Origin: a virus
Lineage: Duplodnaviria; Heunggongvirae; Uroviricota; Caudoviricetes
Direction: 5' to 3' (one strand)
IMG/VR virus record: IMGVR_UViG_2657245091_000012
DNA length: 22,164 nt
Positions 5,949 to 19,345 of this stretch are shown piece by piece. Position 1 is the stretch's first letter. Every line of letters begins with the position of its first letter. The notes beneath the pieces are model-generated. The model made no database searches, was not told the DNA's origin, and saw nothing but the letters and a program-made list of their open reading frames with translations. Made by a program: the position numbers and the translations under genes.

Positions 5949-6106
5949 AACTCTAATGATTTGTGTTAGAAAACTAAAATTAAATCACATAACAACATGC
6001 GTGTTAATATATTTTATTTTACTAAGCCTATTGACTAAATCACAAAGTATGTATTGTTAGCACGTCAAAAGAACCTTCACGCCGCGCCCGAATTTAGGGC
6101 TTAACC

Positions 6107-7804
6107 GTGAATAAAAACATTCAGCCAGCTCGTGATCGCGAGCGCGAGATTATGAATCGGGCGGCAAGCGTCATGGCTATGACCGTCGATCCGACCACCG
6201 ATGCAGCAGGCAACATGATTGCTGACCAGGCAGTAATGATGGAAAACCTGGATAAAGCAATCCAGAAAGTGCCTATGTTTGAAGGCGTAAATCCAGAGGT
6301 CGCTCGTCAGATCACTGGTGGGTGGGCTATGTCTCTGCATGAGTATAAACGTCAACATGGTCATTACCCGGCAAGTGACATCCTGGCGAACGCACACATG
6401 GCTCTTGAACGCCTGATGACTGAATGTGCCAGTGATACCCATGAAGGCACGGGTAAGGCAATGTTTGAGTCTGTCGCGCAATCAATGCGTAGCTCTGACG
6501 GCGTAATGAAAGTTGCTCAATATGCTGCTCTAATTCTGCCTGCCTCTCTGGGCGCTGCTACCAGTGATGCCTGTACTTTTGTTCCTTGTGATCGTGACGA
6601 GTCAAATATTTATGAACTGGTCAACGTAGCAGGCACAAAATTCGGCACCTTCAAACAAGGTGACGAACTGAATATGCAGTCAGCTGGTGTTTATTCTCAA
6701 ATGAAGCGCCTGTATACCCTTTCCACTAAAGGGGATGGCAGCACCAAAACCTTCCAGTTCGACATCCAAAATTTTGAGGGACAATCCTGCCCGCTTCGCG
6801 CTGGTTATAACAAACTGCTGATCAACCGCAAACCGTCCAAAGTTGACGACGGCGATGGCAACCTTTATTTCAATGCTAAAGACAGCAAAGGTAATGCTTT
6901 CTCAGCGACTGCCAAAGTTGCCTATGACACTGGTGTCATTGACATTACATTTACCCAGGCTCCGCCAGAAGGTACTGAAATTGCTGTTCAGGTCGAAATT
7001 AACATCGAGCGCAATCCAAGCCTGATTCCTGTGATCAACCAGGCTATGCGTAAGTACGAAGTTCGTCCGTCCCAGTACGTAATTGCTTCCGAACACACGG
7101 TAATGTCCGCATCCGATTTAAGCCGTGAGCACGGCCTTGAATTAGCGGCACTTCAGTTCTCCGCGATGCGTAACTGGATCTCCCATGAAACCGACATCAT
7201 GCGTCTGCGCACCCTGGTATTCCATACCGTTTATGGTCGTGAATTTGATGTGGCTCTGCCGGAAGCTCAAAACTATGAGTCCTGGGTCGGCCTCCTGCGT
7301 CACGTAGTAAACGCTCTGTCTCAAGAAATGGCAAATCGTACCCTGACAACGGGTATTCGTGGCGGCTTTGCTGGTGGTGACGCCGCGAACTTCCTGCGCT
7401 CTCTGCCTCCACAGCACTTCCAGATCGCACCAGGTTACGTTCAGTCGCCGTATGTACAGTACATCGGCACCCTGTTTGGCACGATTCGTATTTACGAAGT
7501 GCCGCAACCTGTCTGTGAGCAATTCCAGGCACAGGGATATGACTTCGGGCTGGATGACATCTTCTTCTATGGGCGTGGCGAAGGCATCGGTAAAGCCGGT
7601 CTGATTGCTGGTGATGCAGTCCCAGCAATCCCTTACGTGCACGAAACCAATCCGTCTCTCGTTAACCGTACCACTCTCTGGGGCAGTGCCATCAACGAAG
7701 TACATCCTCGCAACGGTGAAAACTACTTCACCCGCCTGCGTCTGACTCGTGCCAAAGAAGGTGCTATCGACATGCTGACAGGCAAGGTTAACGAAAAAAA
7801 GTGA
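6107..7804 (+). CDS. major virion structural protein, probably the major capsid protein (565 aa); GTG start
   Basis: Large ORF at the head of the structural block, followed by a stem-loop and an Ig-like protein gene and then the sheath gene; the capsid call is inferred from position and size, not from a recognised motif. The start is uncertain (GTG at 6107 or ATG at 6152). Confidence 0.45.
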   Translation: MNKNIQPARDREREIMNRAASVMAMTVDPTTDAAGNMIADQAVMMENLDKAIQKVPMFEGVNPEVARQITGGWAMSLHEYKRQHGHYPASDILANAHMALERLMTECASDTHEGTGKAMFESVAQSMRSSDGVMKVAQYAALILPASLGAATSDACTFVPCDRDESNIYELVNVAGTKFGTFKQGDELNMQSAGVYSQMKRLYTLSTKGDGSTKTFQFDIQNFEGQSCPLRAGYNKLLINRKPSKVDDGDGNLYFNAKDSKGNAFSATAKVAYDTGVIDITFTQAPPEGTEIAVQVEINIERNPSLIPVINQAMRKYEVRPSQYVIASEHTVMSASDLSREHGLELAALQFSAMRNWISHETDIMRLRTLVFHTVYGREFDVALPEAQNYESWVGLLRHVVNALSQEMANRTLTTGIRGGFAGGDAANFLRSLPPQHFQIAPGYVQSPYVQYIGTLFGTIRIYEVPQPVCEQFQAQGYDFGLDDIFFYGRGEGIGKAGLIAGDAVPAIPYVHETNPSLVNRTTLWGSAINEVHPRNGENYFTRLRLTRAKEGAIDMLTGKVNEKK

Positions 7805-7917
7805 TGGTGGCGAACGTGTCGGTATCACCAACGTCACTTGACGTAGATGAAGGTGAAACTATCGCCGCGAACACTTCAAAGGCACAGAAAAAAACAAAGC
7901 AGAAGTAAGGCAAAAAC

Positions 7918-7938
7918 ACGCCCCTGAATAAGGGGCGT
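7918..7938 (+). other. GC-rich stem-loop (acgcccc / ggggcgt, 7-nt loop) between the capsid-like gene and the Big_2 gene, immediately followed by the SD caggag
   Basis: Direct reading of complementary arms; no downstream U-tract, so not a canonical intrinsic terminator. Confidence 0.5.
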
Positions 7939-7951
7939 TCAGGAGAAAAGA

Positions 7952-8230
7952 ATGGCAAACATTCAAGTAACTATCACGCCATCTGACGCAACAGACAAAT
8001 CTTTCACTGTTGAGTCAGATCACCCTGAAATTGTCCAGGTTGATGGCACTACATGTACCGCTCTTAAGGCCGGGCAGGCAGTGCTGACAATCAAAACAAA
8101 TGACGGCAATAAAACCGCACAGTGCACAGTCACTGTTAGGGAGGCACCTAAAAGCGTAAGCGCCGTCAGTGTTGAACCAACTACGAAAGAAGTAACCGTA
8201 GGCGACAACTTCACGGTAAGCGAATCCTGA
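7952..8230 (+). CDS. small Ig-like (Big_2-type) domain protein, possible capsid or tail decoration protein
   Basis: 92 aa; TITPSDATDKSFTVESDHPEIVQVDGTTCTALKAGQAVLTIKTNDGNKTAQCTVTV has the typical bacterial Ig-like group 2 pattern; SD caggag upstream of the ATG. Confidence 0.6.
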   Translation: MANIQVTITPSDATDKSFTVESDHPEIVQVDGTTCTALKAGQAVLTIKTNDGNKTAQCTVTVREAPKSVSAVSVEPTTKEVTVGDNFTVSES

Positions 8231-8235
8231 TCAGA

Positions 8236-8260
8236 GGCTGCCCATTAACCGTGGGTAGCC
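8236..8260 (+). other. stem-loop (ggctgccca / tgggtagcc, one G-U pair) between the Big_2 gene and the sheath gene
   Basis: Direct reading; followed by a T-rich stretch and the SD gagga of the sheath gene. Confidence 0.4.
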
Positions 8261-8297
8261 TTGCCTCGTTCTCTCGCTTTAGAGGATAAGAACCAGC

Positions 8298-9956
8298 ATG
8301 AATAAGATTAGTTTTTCGGTAGGGCAGGCAGCTGGCGTTGCTGTAATGTCAGTAAATGCTGACGCTACCCTCACCAATACCAGCGGTGGCGCATCCGTCT
8401 TTGCTGGGCTTGTAATATCGCGTCGTGGCGCACCGGGTAAGGTACTGAAAGTTGACGATACGACTTATCAAAGCGTATTAGGTTCACCGATTCACCCTCG
8501 CCAGGGCGCGGCATTTGAACCATATCGCCACGTGGAGCGTGCAGTAAAAGGCGGCTCTGGATATGTCGTTCGAGTTTGCGCTAAAGACATGAAGGTGCCT
8601 GGTATTTCTGTTTCCGTTGTGGGCAAAGCAAAAGCGGCAAAGGCGAGCAAAGAACTTTCCGTTGAACCTACTGAAACCACAGTAAATCCAGGTGACACAT
8701 TAAGCGTTGGTGTTGCTTCAACTGCAACGACTCAATCAGTGTCCTTCACACCCAAAGAGACGCCCCAGATTAAAGGTGAAGAGAAGGCATTATTCTTCAT
8801 CAAAGATGGTGATGCATCTCAAAATCGCACGTTATCACTAACTCGCGATGATGAAGAAAGCGAACTCTTTACGCTGACGCTGAAAGAAAAACAAACCGAT
8901 GGGTCCATTGAGGTGCTGGAAAGCCACCAAGTGTCTTTCAATCCAGAAGGCACTAACGACATGGGCCAACCAGCATGGATTCCGACACTGCTTGAAAGCC
9001 AGTCCACTCGCATTGGTGCCGTACTGGCAGATAATGCAGAAGCATCCGCTGCTCAACTCATTTTTGAGGATGTAGCTTTTGAAGGTGGTACTGATGGAGA
9101 TCTGTCCGAAATTGACACTGAAGACTATCTGGAAGCATTAAAGGTTCTCGAAGCTTCAGAGGTTAATTACACCGCATTGCTGTCACTGGGTTGTTATGAC
9201 GCATCCGCCTTAGCCGCAATCAAAAAGCTGGCTGAAGATGTTCGCGTAGACATGTTCTATGACCTGAAGGGCAACCAGACACCTGAAAACGCTATTTCAG
9301 AAGCGAAAAGCCATAGTTTTGGCGGCTCACATCAACCAAGCCGTTACTACTTCCCGCTCTCCTGCCGAGATACCTTCACTGGGATGAATGTCGTCTATGG
9401 CATTAGTTGCGACGCATTCGTAGCAAAAGCAAAAGGGGTAGCGCTGGTACCGGATGTTGGTGGTTGGCATTACGCACCGGCAGGTATATCACGCGCGATT
9501 ATTGATCGACAGAACATTGCCCGAATTCCAAATATCGGTGCAGTTGATCGTGAAGCGTTCGTTCTTGCGCGCATTAATCCGGTTTCAGTTGCTGCTGATG
9601 GGTCCGTTTACATTGACGACTCTTTAACAACTTACAGCAAAAACAACTATCTGCGATTCCAGCATGTGTCTTCCTTGATGAACGCCATCGCCAGAGATTT
9701 CTATGAAGTAGCTCAGGCGATTAAGCACGAACCGGATGGCATTACCAAAGAAACGCTAATGAAAGCAATGACTGAATTGCTTGACCGTTACGTTGCAGCC
9801 GGTGCGCTGGTTACTCCACGTGACAAGTCCCAGGGTGAAGATCCATATGTTGTTCAGGTTGTCCAAAAGGACATCGATCTGTGGGAAGTGTCCTGGTCTG
9901 TTTGTCCGACCGGTACAGCTCGCCGAATCGTCGGTAAGCCAATTCTGATGCGCTGA
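8298..9956 (+). CDS. contractile tail sheath protein
   Basis: 552 aa; the C-terminal region (YLRFQHVSSLMNAIARDFYEVAQAIKHEPDGITKETLMKAMTELLDRYVAAGAL) matches the conserved sheath C-terminal pattern I recall from R-pyocin and P2-type sheaths (...VFEPND...FLRDQWRDGAL...); strong SD. Confidence 0.7.
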   Translation: MNKISFSVGQAAGVAVMSVNADATLTNTSGGASVFAGLVISRRGAPGKVLKVDDTTYQSVLGSPIHPRQGAAFEPYRHVERAVKGGSGYVVRVCAKDMKVPGISVSVVGKAKAAKASKELSVEPTETTVNPGDTLSVGVASTATTQSVSFTPKETPQIKGEEKALFFIKDGDASQNRTLSLTRDDEESELFTLTLKEKQTDGSIEVLESHQVSFNPEGTNDMGQPAWIPTLLESQSTRIGAVLADNAEASAAQLIFEDVAFEGGTDGDLSEIDTEDYLEALKVLEASEVNYTALLSLGCYDASALAAIKKLAEDVRVDMFYDLKGNQTPENAISEAKSHSFGGSHQPSRYYFPLSCRDTFTGMNVVYGISCDAFVAKAKGVALVPDVGGWHYAPAGISRAIIDRQNIARIPNIGAVDREAFVLARINPVSVAADGSVYIDDSLTTYSKNNYLRFQHVSSLMNAIARDFYEVAQAIKHEPDGITKETLMKAMTELLDRYVAAGALVTPRDKSQGEDPYVVQVVQKDIDLWEVSWSVCPTGTARRIVGKPILMR

Positions 9957-9963
9957 TTTATAA

Positions 9964-9985
9964 CCCCCGCTAAATGATGCGGGGG
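9964..9985 (+). other. GC-rich stem-loop (cccccgc / gcggggg, 8-nt loop) right after the sheath gene, immediately followed by SD and the next start
   Basis: Direct reading of complementary arms. Confidence 0.5.
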
Positions 9986-9999
9986 AGAGAGGTTTGAAT

Positions 10000-10734
10000 A
10001 TGAAAAATTATACTGCTGATCCTTTTATGCGTGCGATTTTCGGTTCTGGCTGCTTTGAAAGCGGTGATAAATCCACGCAGGACAATAATGATAACGCCAT
10101 GCTGGAAAGCGCAGGACAGAAAGGAAAGGACACTCAACCAAAGCCCAAAGACGACATTGAAACCGCGATGATGGAAGCGGTTGAATCCCGTGCACAAGGT
10201 GATATGCGCAGCCTGGCAGCTTCCATGCTTGCTGGTTGGGTTGAAGATGGTGATCCGGAGGCTGACTCATTTGATGCATTAGCAATCACTATGGCTGGCC
10301 TGGCTGATATCGATGAAGACACCGATTTCACCGATGAGCAAATCGATGCTTATAACGATGCTCTCGCAGCTCTTGCTGATGCAGCTGTTGCGCTTGGCGC
10401 TGATCAGGATGATGTAACCGAAATGATCGACGATGAAGATGACTCAGCTGCCGAACGTGTTTATGACGCTCTTTCCGAAAGCGACACCGACATGATGGAA
10501 ACAGCTATTGCCATTTACACCGTTGCTGGTGGTGATAGCGCAATGCTGGAAGCGGTACGTAAAAAAGTGGTTCGTGATGGCAAGGTTACCATCATCCGTA
10601 AACGCCCGCGTCCTCGCCGCATGACGTCATTGCAAAAACAGGCGCTGAAAAAAGCACGCCGCAAAGCACATACATCCGTAGCGAATATCAACCGCAAAAA
10701 ATCAATGCGCATTCGCAAAAAACGCGGTTTGTAA
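10000..10734 (+). CDS. hypothetical virion-block protein with a strongly acidic body and a highly basic C-terminal tail (244 aa)
   Basis: Asp/Glu-rich centre (DIDEDTDFTDEQIDAYNDALAALADAAVALGADQDDVTEMIDDEDDSAAE) and Lys/Arg-rich C-terminus (IIRKRPRPRRMTSLQKQALKKARRKAHTSVANINRKKSMRIRKKRGL); ATG at 10000 with SD gagagg (the track start at 9994 is a TTG). Confidence 0.5.
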   Translation: MKNYTADPFMRAIFGSGCFESGDKSTQDNNDNAMLESAGQKGKDTQPKPKDDIETAMMEAVESRAQGDMRSLAASMLAGWVEDGDPEADSFDALAITMAGLADIDEDTDFTDEQIDAYNDALAALADAAVALGADQDDVTEMIDDEDDSAAERVYDALSESDTDMMETAIAIYTVAGGDSAMLEAVRKKVVRDGKVTIIRKRPRPRRMTSLQKQALKKARRKAHTSVANINRKKSMRIRKKRGL

Positions 10735-15562: not shown

Positions 15563-18500
15563 ATGGATATCAGCCCGTTAGCGACGTTGAACAATTACCG
15601 CAATGGCGAGCACTCCATATGTCAAAAGCCCTGGAAGAAAAATACAAAGCTCAAGCTGGGAAACGTTGATCGCGCTGGTAAAAGAGAGGTTATTTTGAAA
15701 GAGAATAAAGACCGTATCGCAATAATTGACGCTATTCAGGAGGCGAGCACAAACGAACTTAAAGCTCTTGCTGAGGTAAAAGACGCCATTCTTTCTGGGG
15801 CAAGCACCATAACTCAACAGGACGAAAGGCAAGGCAGAGTTAGCAACAGACTATCACGCAGGCGTAAAGACTACGAGCAAAGTACATCTGATAGCGTTAG
15901 AGATGTCCAAACTAACCCATATAAAAAACGTCTCCCTGCTAAAAAGGAAAGGGCACCGATAAACCAAACCGTGGACCGCTCTATCGTTGCAACGAACACA
16001 CCAGAAAGTGTTCGCTCCGTGCAATCACGTCAGACCATCCGAAAACCGGACGGTTTTATACCGGTAGCTGCTAATTCAGCCCCTCTTGAACCACAATCTC
16101 CCCAAAGTCTAAAAGGCCCGCTGCGGGATAGTAGTGGACGTTTTGTATCCCAAAAAAGCAATGAGGATGTAGCCAGAAAAAAAGAATTGCAGAACGCACG
16201 TAAAGCCGACGCAAAATTACAAGCTGGCTTTCTCAGAAAGCTAGGTTCCATTATGGGGGTAGATGGCAATCAGTCTTCCAGTGAAGAGTCTTTAACAAAT
16301 GCAGCTGGTGTCGGTGCTGGTGGGCCGTTATGGATGGCGGCTCGTGGCATGTACGACATAACTAAAGAGATCACAGGTAAAGCAGAATCTCTTAAAGAAT
16401 GGGTAGAAAAGGGGAAAAAAGAAACATCAACCTCGAAAGCGATATCACCAGTAATTACTTATCCGGCGGCGGTGAATTCTCAAAAAGCAACATCTGCAAA
16501 AGCGTTCAATAACGCTGTTGAGACAAAATCCGCACAAGCAGTAGAAGAGCAAACCAAAATCCTTCAGACCAATGACAACAAAATAATTGATGGTCTGGAA
16601 AATGTTTCTGACGAGATACTTAAGCTTCGGAAATCAGTGTATTCTGGAAATAAGTTCGGCTTAAGTGATCTCTGGAAAAATCGAGCAAGCAGAAGAAATA
16701 AAATCAATATTGGTGATCAGACGGGAAAAAATAAACGGAACAAATCGAAAAGGAAAGGCCGCAATCTTGGAAAAAAAGCACTCTCCGCTGGCGAAAAAGT
16801 TGCTGCCGGTAGCGCTGCGGCTGGCACTGGTGTCGGAGCAGCAAAAGTAGTTAAAAATAAGATCAGCAAACCCAAAGATGTAAGCACTATCAGCGATACA
16901 TCAAAGGGGATTGCAAAGGAAACAAAAAATACTGCTAAGGCCGTGAAGTCAGCTGGTGTTGTGGCTGAAGATGCCACCATTAAAACCGGCGAAGCCATTG
17001 CAAAGAAAAAAACTGAATCTGTAGCCCTCAAAAGTGCTGCAAAAATAGGTGTTAAATCAGCAGCATCCACAGCGGCAAGAGCGGTCCCTATCATCGGTTC
17101 GCTGGCAATGGCTGGATATGACGCCATAGATGGTTACACAGATACAGAGGCGCAAAAGGCAGCCTTTGGTTTAAGTGACGATAATGCTGTATCCGAACAG
17201 CAAAAAACGGCTTACGCAACAGCTAATGTGCTCGATATGGGGGGCTTGGTGTCGGGCGCAACGAACTTGATAGGGAAAGGAATTTCTGCGCTAGGATTTG
17301 AAAGAGCAGGTGAAAAACTTCAGAATTTTGATACCGGAGATATTGCTCGTGGTGTTAACGGCGCGGTAGATATCACCAAATCTGTTTTTGGTAGCCTTAA
17401 GGATACATTTTTATCCACTGACGAAAACACGAAACAAGTAAAAAAAGCTGTTGAAGACGGCACCAAAAAAACTGTCGATGCGATTCATTCTCTAGGTGAA
17501 CAATTACAAGGTGGGCGTAATGGCGAGGATGGAGTTGGTGAGCACGGGTATACTTCTCCAACTGAATTTAGTGCACCTGCCAACAACACCATTGCAGCGG
17601 ATCTGAATATTGGCGGCAGCAACGCTAAAAACCGCAATTACCGAAATAATAATCTCGGCAATCTTGTTTTTGCCAACCAGGAAGGGGCGACGCTGGAATC
17701 GCCAAATGCAAAAGGTGAACAACGTTTTGCTCGATTTAACACGCCTGAAGAAGGGATCAGGGCACTGGCAAACCAGGTTTCCAGCTATTACAACGGCACC
17801 AGTGCCGCAGCGGGATATCAGAAGTTACAGACGGTATCCAGCATCATTTCAAAATGGGCACCGCCAAATGAGAACAATACTAACCAATATATTGATAACG
17901 TCAGTAAATATCTTGGTGTATCGCCTAATGAAAAAATAGATGTCAGCAACCCAGAGGTTATGACGCAATTAGTTCGTGCAATTGCGACGAAAGAAGGCGG
18001 AAATCCGGCAGTTAATAATGAGTTCATTAAGAATGCACTTGGAGCATTTAACACAAACACTGGTCGATGGGAGGGACAATTCTCTGACGAAACATTGGCG
18101 CGGATTAATAAAATTCAGAAAGAAAATGGTGGTCAGCTAATTGCCCGCGATTCGCAATATAGTGTTGGTCGCAAGGTAAAATATGCTAATGGAAAATCTC
18201 CAGCTCATCCAGTTTTGAATGCCGTTCCGACAGCAACACAACAGCCAATTGAGGTTGCACAACATGCCCAGGCAGTCAAAAAGCCACAAAAAACAGGCAA
18301 TCAATCGCAACCGATTAATCCAGAGAATGTTGATGTTAATACTGGCTCGCCATCAAGTCTGCTTGAGAGATTAATCGCTATAAATGAAAGCGGGGTAGGT
18401 AATTTATTTGGAGGTGCGGCTACCAGCCTTGCTGGTACAAGCCTTGGCCTGATTAAGGATTTTGCGTCGGCGACTTCGTTTGGTTCTATATCTTCGCTTT

Positions 18501-19345
18501 CCGAAAAAGCGAAAGGAATGGATCAGGCTCTTACTGAAAAGATATCCAGCTTAACCGGTAAATCTTTTGGATTTCAAAAAGCAAGCCAGGTAACTGATAT
18601 AAGAGACGCTTTACAAAAAAGACCAAAAGCTGAACTCGATATGCCTTCAGTGGATCTTCTCTCCGGTGTTTCTTCGGCAAGTGAGAGTGAAAAAATCTCT
18701 GTAAACTCAAGGGGGATTCCAGTTTATGACAATGGATACAAGGTAATTGATGGTGAAGATAAGGGGGTGCTTGGCTCTTTGTTTGACTCGTCATTAACAG
18801 GTCTGAAACGTATTAGCTCTGCTGTGTTACCTGCAATTGGCGATAACGTTTCACAACTTATTGGTGGGGTAGATGGCACAGGCATTGTTAATGATTTGAT
18901 TTATCAGGCTACTGGGCAGAATTCAACAATTGCCAGGGCTATTAGCCCGCTTACCAGGAGCGCCGGTAGTTGGCTGAATAATGGTATTCAACAAACCGCA
19001 GATAGCATTAGAGGTATATCAAACGAAGCCAATAATGCCATATTTGGCTCTGCGTCAGCCGTGCAAGAACCTTTTCTTGCTTTGCCACCACAGCTTCCTA
19101 CTGTAACAGATCTCGCACGAAGCGGAATAAGACAACCATTAACTACTGACACTATAAATAACGATCCTGCTATGTTGAAGGCGCTGGATAACATCTGCTC
19201 TATCCTGAACGATCTTCTGAATGTGAACAAGAACAATACAAAAGGCGATCCGGATAAGGTTGTCAAAACATCGCAGCCGCAACCGCGACCACGTGCTAGC
19301 ACAACTATTAATGACCCGTCGCTGGATGCTCTGCTTGAGGATTAA
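15563..19345 (+). CDS. large tail protein, putative tape measure protein (1260 aa)
   Basis: Very long ORF with a Lys-rich coiled-coil-like N-terminal third, Ala/Gly-rich hydrophobic segments (AGSAAAGTGVGAAKVV, AVPIIGSLAMAG), and position between tube-like and baseplate-like genes; contains a conserved-looking internal segment (NNNLGNLVFANQEGATLESPNAKGEQRFARFNTPEEGIRALANQV) of unknown function. Confidence 0.5.
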   Translation: MDISPLATLNNYRNGEHSICQKPWKKNTKLKLGNVDRAGKREVILKENKDRIAIIDAIQEASTNELKALAEVKDAILSGASTITQQDERQGRVSNRLSRRRKDYEQSTSDSVRDVQTNPYKKRLPAKKERAPINQTVDRSIVATNTPESVRSVQSRQTIRKPDGFIPVAANSAPLEPQSPQSLKGPLRDSSGRFVSQKSNEDVARKKELQNARKADAKLQAGFLRKLGSIMGVDGNQSSSEESLTNAAGVGAGGPLWMAARGMYDITKEITGKAESLKEWVEKGKKETSTSKAISPVITYPAAVNSQKATSAKAFNNAVETKSAQAVEEQTKILQTNDNKIIDGLENVSDEILKLRKSVYSGNKFGLSDLWKNRASRRNKINIGDQTGKNKRNKSKRKGRNLGKKALSAGEKVAAGSAAAGTGVGAAKVVKNKISKPKDVSTISDTSKGIAKETKNTAKAVKSAGVVAEDATIKTGEAIAKKKTESVALKSAAKIGVKSAASTAARAVPIIGSLAMAGYDAIDGYTDTEAQKAAFGLSDDNAVSEQQKTAYATANVLDMGGLVSGATNLIGKGISALGFERAGEKLQNFDTGDIARGVNGAVDITKSVFGSLKDTFLSTDENTKQVKKAVEDGTKKTVDAIHSLGEQLQGGRNGEDGVGEHGYTSPTEFSAPANNTIAADLNIGGSNAKNRNYRNNNLGNLVFANQEGATLESPNAKGEQRFARFNTPEEGIRALANQVSSYYNGTSAAAGYQKLQTVSSIISKWAPPNENNTNQYIDNVSKYLGVSPNEKIDVSNPEVMTQLVRAIATKEGGNPAVNNEFIKNALGAFNTNTGRWEGQFSDETLARINKIQKENGGQLIARDSQYSVGRKVKYANGKSPAHPVLNAVPTATQQPIEVAQHAQAVKKPQKTGNQSQPINPENVDVNTGSPSSLLERLIAINESGVGNLFGGAATSLAGTSLGLIKDFASATSFGSISSLSEKAKGMDQALTEKISSLTGKSFGFQKASQVTDIRDALQKRPKAELDMPSVDLLSGVSSASESEKISVNSRGIPVYDNGYKVIDGEDKGVLGSLFDSSLTGLKRISSAVLPAIGDNVSQLIGGVDGTGIVNDLIYQATGQNSTIARAISPLTRSAGSWLNNGIQQTADSIRGISNEANNAIFGSASAVQEPFLALPPQLPTVTDLARSGIRQPLTTDTINNDPAMLKALDNICSILNDLLNVNKNNTKGDPDKVVKTSQPQPRPRASTTINDPSLDALLED

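Follow-up and report, generated by a model that had tools for sequence, protein, structure and literature searches.

The gene for the major capsid protein of a D6-type phage-plasmid very probably carries a programmed -1 ribosomal frameshift site at its 3' end, which would append 35 residues to some of the capsid subunits. The sequence concerned (hereafter the window) is a stretch of 22,164 nucleotides from a Caudoviricetes virus, IMG/VR record IMGVR_UViG_2657245091_000012. Its capsid gene ends in the slippery heptamer A AAA AAG, and the -1 frame entered there encodes the first strands of an immunoglobulin (Ig)-like domain of the Pfam family Big_2, the rest of which appears to be encoded by the next gene. 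Comparative analysis of related capsid genes shows that this extension belongs to the capsid cistron, with a putative -1 shift at A AAA AAG as the point of entry. The elements of the junction are as follows.

6107-7804, plus strand: major capsid protein gene (P1 gp23 / D6 orf51 type), 565 codons and UGA, from the open reading frame (ORF) list and the D6 annotation.
7795-7801, plus strand: slippery heptamer A AAA AAG in the zero frame, codons 564-565, Lys-Lys.
7802-7804, plus strand: zero-frame stop UGA, abutting the heptamer; UAA or UAG in relatives, here or two codons on.
7801-7908, plus strand: -1 frame extension, 35 codons and UAA at 7906-7908, annotated in D6 as 'orf50'.

The capsid gene ends ...AAC GAA AAA AAG TGA, and the codons AAA AAG lie in frame at 7795-7801, as an X XXY YYZ heptamer requires. 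Translation of the -1 frame from 7801 gives VMVANVSVSPTSLDVDEGETIAANTSKAQKKTKQK and stops at the TAA at 7906-7908. The predicted trans-frame junction is MLTGKVNEKK-VMVANVSVSPTSLD, with VNEKK running directly into VMVANVSV, and the predicted product has 600 amino acids compared with 565 for the zero-frame protein, making it approximately 3.7 kDa heavier. Re-translation was identical to that in a preliminary description made from the sequence alone, which had placed the heptamer in the zero frame before the stop and the end of a 35-residue -1 extension at the same TAA.

Positions 6100-10000 of the window are 99.7% identical to Escherichia phage D6, a P1-like myovirus whose prophage is kept as a plasmid, and positions 7300-8700 are 100% identical to the E. 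coli plasmid CP157128. Among 5,426 complete E. coli genomes, 83 carry the region on plasmids, and 121 PLSDB plasmids also contain it. Over its full length the capsid ORF is 44% identical to the solved P1 Gp23 (PDB 9ukm), which has an HK97 fold with an insertion domain and whose N-terminal 124 residues are unresolved, consistent with their proteolytic removal (PMC12810830). The D6 record lists 6107-7804 as a major capsid protein 'similar to P1 gene 23', 7804-7908 as a separate 'orf50' of 34 codons (34 aa), 7952-8230 as 'orf49, structural protein with Ig domain' and 8298-9956 as the tail sheath.

The D6-type set comprised 23 distinct junction sequences from plasmids and viral contigs, down to 75-80% nucleotide identity. 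Distant relatives were found through plasmid, viral-contig and sheath-homologue searches; their capsids are 60-80% identical and their Ig proteins 40-50%. Scans of genome collections and metagenomes yielded no lineage beyond those from viral contigs, plasmids and sheath homologues. One sequence (L003, Salmonella plasmid pSa1423-90k, NZ_MK356557) was excluded from comparisons; it contains many small indels across the capsid-Ig-sheath region, its coding sequence calls are fragmentary and it looks like an uncorrected long-read assembly.

Within the D6-type set the twelve bases AACGAAAAAAAG are unchanged in all 23 sequences, the four codons ahead of them vary and the stop after the heptamer is UGA, UAA or UAG. 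Throughout the set the open -1 frame spans exactly 35 codons; replacements in it are mostly conservative (S/A, T/A, D/E, L/I), and the only frame-disrupting change is one homopolymer length variant in the Lys tail. In the diverged clades of the set (77-81% identical) the ATG of D6 'orf50' is replaced by GCA. Synonymous divergence (dS) between D6-type clades is 0.25-0.50 in the extension; the last 100 codons of the capsid gene give 1.0-1.5 and the Ig gene 0.8-3. Nonsynonymous divergence (dN) in the extension (0.11-0.18) is below the neighbouring dS. Synonymous change is therefore locally suppressed in the extension, a pattern expected of an RNA element that overlaps a coding sequence.

Seven further lineages carry A AAA AAG with its phase unchanged, at a distance of 0 or 2 codons from the capsid stop that follows. 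These are an Enterobacter type (L033/L052/L188), Klebsiella variicola (L269), Raoultella (L271), a metagenomic lineage (L273), K. michiganensis (L274, in which just the C-terminal 183 capsid codons were called as an ORF), L275 and L276. The linker 5' of the heptamer is hypervariable and acidic or Gly-containing (NEKK, NSSASNPGETTDEEEKKSE, NKGSTGNEAGTGEAGSETEKKSK, NGDDTDGDTGNDTGKKSQ, NEPEQTTPGDEGEAKKSE). The codon before AAA AAG is GAA, GGA or GCA (Glu, Gly or Ala), with A as its third base in every lineage. Because the preceding amino acid changes and the third base does not, selection acts at the level of the nucleotide heptamer rather than of the peptide. In three lineages the A-run has only six bases; the phase is fixed in all eight. 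The -1 ORF is open in every lineage, for 23-45 codons, and its product in each case follows the pattern V-x-V-[TA]-[GN]-V-S-V-x-P...V-G-[DE]-x-I, that of the N-terminal part of Big_2. The Enterobacter-type ORF lacks any ATG, GTG or TTG and its frame opens four codons 5' of the junction; thus it can be reached only through a change of frame.

Homologues were also found in which the extension, or a whole Ig-like domain, is fused to the capsid without any shift. In L053/L054 (capsid 74% identical) the heptamer is missing and the homologous piece lies in frame, ending in LTGQVNGTSGTVVEGVTLSPASITVSAGDEITAGNTKKDS and a stop, to give a protein of 599 residues, one short of the 600 that the D6 trans-frame product is predicted to have. 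L278 (962-2947 of a Logan SRR23005537 contig) encodes a capsid of 661 residues, of which 577-654 match Big_2 profile positions 1-78, unsplit and in frame, and has no separate Ig gene; this unsplit state is the likely ancestor of the split arrangement. Representative-library matches added two distant capsid homologues, P0083 (897 aa) with an in-frame C-terminal Big_2 array and P0058 (919 aa) with in-frame C-terminal I-set domains. A complete Ig-like domain within the capsid polypeptide is absent from the window and present in L278 and P0083. Since L053, L278, P0083 and P0058 all carry in-frame Ig-like modules, the capsid C-terminus of this family is a regular point of attachment for them.

The preliminary description had offered two explanations for the junction, a minor frameshifted capsid form or the decayed remnant of an Ig-like extension. 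The minor form is supported by the heptamer phase in eight lineages, the conserved -1 ORF, the lack of a start codon in one lineage and the in-frame homologues. Two checks proposed there, conservation of the A-run and a search of homologues for an in-frame C-terminal Ig-like domain, both turned out positively: heptamer and phase are kept in eight lineages, and the domain is present whole in L278 and P0083 and as a piece in L053.

A different site was found in L079 (IMG/VR contig 2890906962_000004, 4195-4419), whose capsid is 60% identical. The gene ends ACG GGA AAG TGA, so that a G GGA AAG heptamer abuts the capsid stop. A perfect 11-bp hairpin follows 4-5 nt 3' of the heptamer (z-score -5.4), and the -1 ORF of 72 codons encodes an Ala/Gln/Asp/Lys-rich repeat, after which comes the usual post-capsid hairpin. 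To all appearance this is another programmed frameshift, distinct from the first, at the same capsid C-terminus. Because the L079 site differs from that of the D6 type, capsid C-terminal frameshifting would have arisen or been retained with two heptamers and two extensions; and because this lambda-type heptamer stands before a capsid stop, the capsid C-terminus of the family appears to be a recurrent recoding site.

The RNA around the junction was folded, and three hairpins are relevant.

7799-7876, plus strand: predicted irregular RNA hairpin, candidate frameshift stimulator, from minimum free energy (MFE) folding and the alifold consensus.
7918-7938, plus strand: G+C-rich hairpin ACGCCCCU-GAAUA-AGGGGCGU, after the extension stop.
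8236-8260, plus strand: second hairpin GGCUGCCCA-UUAACCG-UGGGUAGCC, between the Ig and sheath genes, read from the sequence.

The core of the first is a 7-bp G+C-rich helix pairing 7807-7813 with 7862-7868, which starts 5 nt 3' of the heptamer. RNA 7795-7880 has an MFE of -31.1 kcal/mol (z-score -4.1), a stability reached by 0 of 200 shuffles. The homologous region of L004 has a z-score of -3.4, and that of the in-frame lineage L053 has one of 0.06. A stimulatory hairpin is thus plausible in these folding models for the D6 type. The hairpin at 7918-7938 has an equivalent of the form GCCCC...GGGGC 3' of the capsid cistron in all relatives, P1 included, and shows one compensatory change, C-G to A-U, in the L004 clade. 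As an intrinsic terminator it was rejected; it scores on the minus strand only, by way of a T-run that relatives lack. Relatives also have hairpins at the position equivalent to 8236-8260. A search of 7600-8400 against Rfam returned no family match. An imperfect direct repeat, GCGAACACTTCAA / GCAAACATTCAA, surrounds the stop, hairpin and start; as a target-site duplication it was discarded, the similarity fading in relatives.

The extension and the following gene were then compared with the Big_2 profile, together with two other segments that resemble its N-terminal part.

7952-8230, plus strand: Ig-like gene of 92 aa (D6 orf49), Shine-Dalgarno (SD) sequence AGGAG at 7941-7945, Pfam Big_2.
8141-8227, plus strand: second Big_2 N-terminal copy, the C-terminal 29 residues of the Ig gene, EAPKSVSAVSVEPTTKEVTVGDNFTVSES.
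8625-8714, plus strand: tail sheath loop, residues 110-139 of the sheath (gene 8298-9956), a Lys-rich linker and ELSVEPTETTVNPGDTLSVGV, a third Big_2 N-terminal-like piece.

The Ig gene matches Big_2 (PF02368) with an E-value of 6e-8, and its C-terminus is a Big_2 N-terminal copy, in agreement with the preliminary description, which had assigned a Big_2 domain to the next gene and seen in its C-terminus the start of another repeat. Residues 4-60 of its product correspond to profile positions 22-79, and the first strands are missing. Residues 3-24 of the extension correspond to profile positions 2 to approximately 21, covering strand A, strand A' and strand B up to its midpoint; a Lys-rich tail comes after them. 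On its own the extension of 35 aa has no Pfam match, spanning only approximately 21 of the 79 profile positions. When the two are spliced in silico the score rises from 32.9 bits for the Ig gene alone (profile 22-79) to 40.0 bits (profile 2-79), and in the Enterobacter and L053 lineages splicing likewise extends the match. The free-standing Ig genes of all lineages start at profile position 22-23, and the nearest Big_2 bodies of unrelated phages and bacteria invariably come with first strands of their own, encoded within the same ORF. As judged from this profile complementarity, the two coding regions are a single Big_2 domain interrupted midway through strand B, where a short tail, a stop, the post-capsid hairpin, an SD sequence and a new start intervene. 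The Ig-like extension proposed in the preliminary description is thus Big_2-derived, but it is not a small Ig domain: it holds just profile positions 2-21, the part that the Ig gene lacks.

The ratio dN/dS (omega) is 0.04-0.14 in the Ig body, indicating purifying selection. In the C-terminal repeat piece (VSAVSVEPTTKEVTVGDNFTV) it is 0.05-0.3 between clades and 0.81 in one near-identical pair. This piece is kept in all lineages except in a 68-aa paralogue of L276. The L276 sequence (2305-2939 of a Logan SRR11077323 contig) has two Ig genes without first strands, one of 68 aa without the C-terminal piece and one of 91 aa with it. Its extension is in frame with the first Ig gene, with one UAA and six codons between them, and the usual hairpin follows the first Ig gene.

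The sheath of every lineage with an Ig gene has a Lys-rich linker in a variable loop, followed in most by a Big_2 N-terminal-like piece, which is only partial in the Enterobacter type and L275. In P1 and in the Citrobacter, Pantoea, Leclercia, Xenorhabdus and Yersinia-type relatives the sheath loop piece and the Ig gene are both absent. When the loop is spliced in silico to the Ig body, the Big_2 score increases to 39.9 bits, from 32.9. An AlphaFold2 (AF2) model of the sheath has a mean pLDDT of 85 (predicted score in the local distance difference test), with residues 110-142 as low-confidence coil (pLDDT 47-68). We tentatively assign the sheath loop to the split-Ig system.

The Lys-rich tail of the extension contains a second run of seven A at 7888-7894. 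Viral contig L016 has six A there, giving an altered and longer tail, and many plasmid matches are, at some point along their length, 1 nt shorter than the query. This variation is either homopolymer length variation or sequencing error.

A mechanism can be proposed from these data. The only tRNA-Lys of E. coli has an anticodon that pairs poorly with AAG, as is known from dnaX and IS elements. With tRNA-Lys on AAA in the P site and on AAG in the A site, some ribosomes would slip back by one base, read GUG in place of UGA and add 35 residues. A AAA AAG is intrinsically shifty in E. coli, and a low-level shift would therefore be expected independently of any stimulator; in the D6 type the hairpin 5 nt downstream may enhance slipping. 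The outcome would be a 600-aa capsid isoform, presumably in the minority, beside the major form of 565 aa. The tail probably lies on the capsid exterior, given that the equivalent position in relatives bears Ig arrays in frame or long flexible tails. There it may act as a beta-strand tag, supplying the missing strands of the 92-aa Ig protein and so anchoring it, in which case the frameshift rate would set the number of capsid subunits bearing the Ig protein. We put such a docking function at slightly better than even. A broader proposal is that the Ig body, devoid of its first strands, could be anchored non-covalently by strand complementation to Big_2 N-terminal tags on a fraction of the capsid, on the sheath loop and on its own C-terminus, and could thus decorate head and tail and perhaps link up head-to-tail as short fibres. 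The 68-aa paralogue of L276, having no tag, would then be a chain terminator. We regard this wider scheme as speculative and on balance doubtful; to our knowledge no such strand-tag mechanism is known for any virus.

Several observations weigh against a programmed frameshift or against the role proposed for it. The window contains 12 copies of AAAAAAG, where 8.7 +/- 3.0 are expected, so that the heptamer alone is at chance level, and there are 15 in-frame X XXY YYZ heptamers in approximately 6,170 codons. Nearly all of the others open -1 ORFs shorter than 12 codons, and by our own rough estimate a -1 frame open for 35 codons has a probability of approximately 0.2 in random sequence. No conserved GGAG or AGGA was found 7-12 nt 5' of the heptamer, where the dnaX subtype has an SD-like stimulator, and the upstream codons differ between clades; with no such conserved element the efficiency of the shift may be only a few percent. 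Covariation in the downstream hairpin was not significant, its pairs being nearly all invariant and the score being reached in 100 of 500 shuffles, and third-codon positions vary equally in paired and unpaired columns. No stimulatory structure common to all lineages was found; shapes differ, with z-scores of -0.9 to -2.5 outside the D6 type. The lineages share descent and are not fully independent samples. The frames are joined in neither public annotation, D6 listing orf50 apart and RefSeq being blank there. For the window alone, the D6-type -1 ORF offers GTG codons, at +6 and +15 nt, from which independent initiation could occur. As to docking, the AF2 model of the Ig protein alone is of low confidence (pLDDT 60), too low to place the C-terminal piece. 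It is conservation in relatives that raises the site above chance. Elsewhere in the window, an ORF of 1260 codons (15563-19345) contains seven in-frame X XXY YYZ heptamers, five of them within runs of six or seven A, and all seven open -1 ORFs of at most 11 codons; these are most likely a by-product of Lys-rich composition.

Four other explanations of the junction were considered. RNA polymerase slippage on the A-run, inserting one A in some transcripts, would yield the same 600-aa protein. The run of seven A at 7794-7800 would allow this, and for the window the two routes are not separable by computation. However, the run is just six A in three lineages (GGA AAA AAG, GCA AAA AAG), and a run of six is too short for efficient transcriptional slippage. 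The codon phase, which matters to the ribosome and not to the polymerase, is the same in eight lineages, and G GGA AAG of L079 is not a homopolymer. Because of the six-A runs and the fixed phase we favour ribosomal over transcriptional slippage, and consider the latter unlikely. The -1 ORF might instead be an independent mini-gene ('orf50'), translated by termination-reinitiation at UGAUG or GUG into a free peptide of 33-34 aa with no frameshift. An ATG at 7804 does overlap the stop, as annotated in D6, and the GTG codons at +6 and +15 are kept in all D6-type clades. This explanation becomes very unlikely once relatives are considered, as the ATG is gone in the diverged clades, no SD sequence precedes any candidate start, the Enterobacter-type ORF has no start codon and the homologous piece is fused in frame to the capsid in L053 and L278. 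It also leaves the conserved heptamer, its phase and the third base of the preceding codon unexplained.

The suggestion in the preliminary description that the junction is a decayed remnant, i.e. that extension and Ig fragments derive from a former capsid-Ig fusion and are non-functional today, would fit an Ig domain broken by a stop, a hairpin and a new start, an Ig gene ending in a truncated second repeat, and the unsplit fusion in L278. Against this, the interrupted architecture is shared by approximately nine related lineages whose Ig proteins are just ~40-50% identical, and decay is hard to reconcile with the low omega of the Ig body and, between clades, of its C-terminal fragment (the near-identical pair apart), with an extension dN well under the neighbouring dS or with a frame intact across 23 D6-type sequences, bar the one homopolymer variant. 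With the extension and the C-terminal fragment under purifying selection and the arrangement kept down to ~40% protein identity, this conservation leads us to rule the remnant out as highly improbable. Lastly, ribosomes could take off at the final codon of the extension, bypass the stop and the hairpin and resume in the Ig gene, as in T4 gene 60, to give a covalent capsid-Ig fusion of ~75 kDa. The layout recalls that of gene 60: AAG and UAA at the take-off point, the hairpin, an AGGAG resembling an SD sequence and, two codons upstream of the Ig ATG, an in-frame AAA. The nascent tail is also basic. Yet only 5 of 9 lineages offer a cognate landing codon in the Ig frame (L273, L274, L275 and L053 have none), and those present are the AAA of the ribosome-binding site spacer, GAG of the SD sequence or Ig codon 2-3, as expected by chance and of a kind that any ribosome-binding site provides. 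Bypassing was rejected on these grounds as scarcely credible. A -1 ribosomal frameshift at A AAA AAG is therefore the reading we retain.

The site has parallels among known recoding systems. In E. coli dnaX, the source of tau and gamma, the same heptamer functions in an enterobacterial host through tandem tRNA-Lys slippage with a stem-loop a few nt downstream (5 nt here). dnaX also has a conserved upstream SD-like stimulator, and its shift leads to early termination and a shorter product. At the D6-type site there is no conserved SD sequence, the zero-frame stop follows at once and the shift would lengthen the protein by 35 residues; of the label 'dnaX-type' in the preliminary description the heptamer thus stands and the upstream SD stimulator does not. 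Recoding near the end of the capsid gene is known from T7/T3 gene 10A/10B, Lactobacillus phage A2 gp5A/5B and Listeria phage PSA Cps, where a minority of subunits has a surface-exposed C-terminal extension. That position is shared here, but heptamers and capsid families differ, and the extensions of those phages are self-contained whereas the present one is a quarter of a domain. In lambda G/GT the heptamer G GGA AAG is identical to that of L079, which has its 11-bp hairpin after it. The lambda site, however, lies in tail assembly chaperone genes, and the 72-aa Ala/Gln/Asp/Lys-rich extension of L079 is not Ig-like.

An Ig-like fold without an edge strand that is completed by a strand of another polypeptide occurs in chaperone-usher pili and in SpyTag/SpyCatcher, and strand completion of an Ig fold is likewise suggested here by the sequences. 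Pilins lack the C-terminal G strand and receive an N-terminal extension, whereas in the present case it is the N-terminal strands that the fold lacks, and the strand would be donated by a C-terminal or loop segment. Programmed frameshifts are known to append Ig-like domains to structural proteins of phages (Fraser et al. 2006, as summarised in PMC9022992). With that class, in so far as the summary describes it, the present case shares the family (Big_2), the protein class (major capsid) and the logic of dosage by frameshift. The cases summarised there add whole Ig domains, in contrast to profile positions 2-21 here; L278 and P0083 show the whole-domain state. The frameshift site is therefore an unannotated new case of a known kind, that of minor capsid isoforms and frameshift-appended Ig domains. 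For a conserved division of one Ig domain between a trans-frame tail on the capsid and a gene of its own, or for correlated pieces elsewhere, no description was found in the searchable literature, the D6 genome paper (PMC5800970) aside.

D6-type phage-plasmids are common and their capsid gene is annotated without recoding; a virion component would thus be missing from every public record. If strand-tag docking is true, it would be a new way of attaching decoration proteins, and the natural split-Ig pair would be usable for phage display. The broader scheme with tags on capsid, sheath and the Ig protein itself would, if true, mirror pilus donor-strand exchange with the missing strand at the opposite end of the fold. 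Within one capsid family there is a graded series, from a whole in-frame Ig domain, through a split domain with an in-frame tag and a split domain with a tag seemingly dosed by frameshift, to a different putative frameshift with a different extension. This series makes the old question of why phages place Ig-like domains behind frameshifts directly testable.

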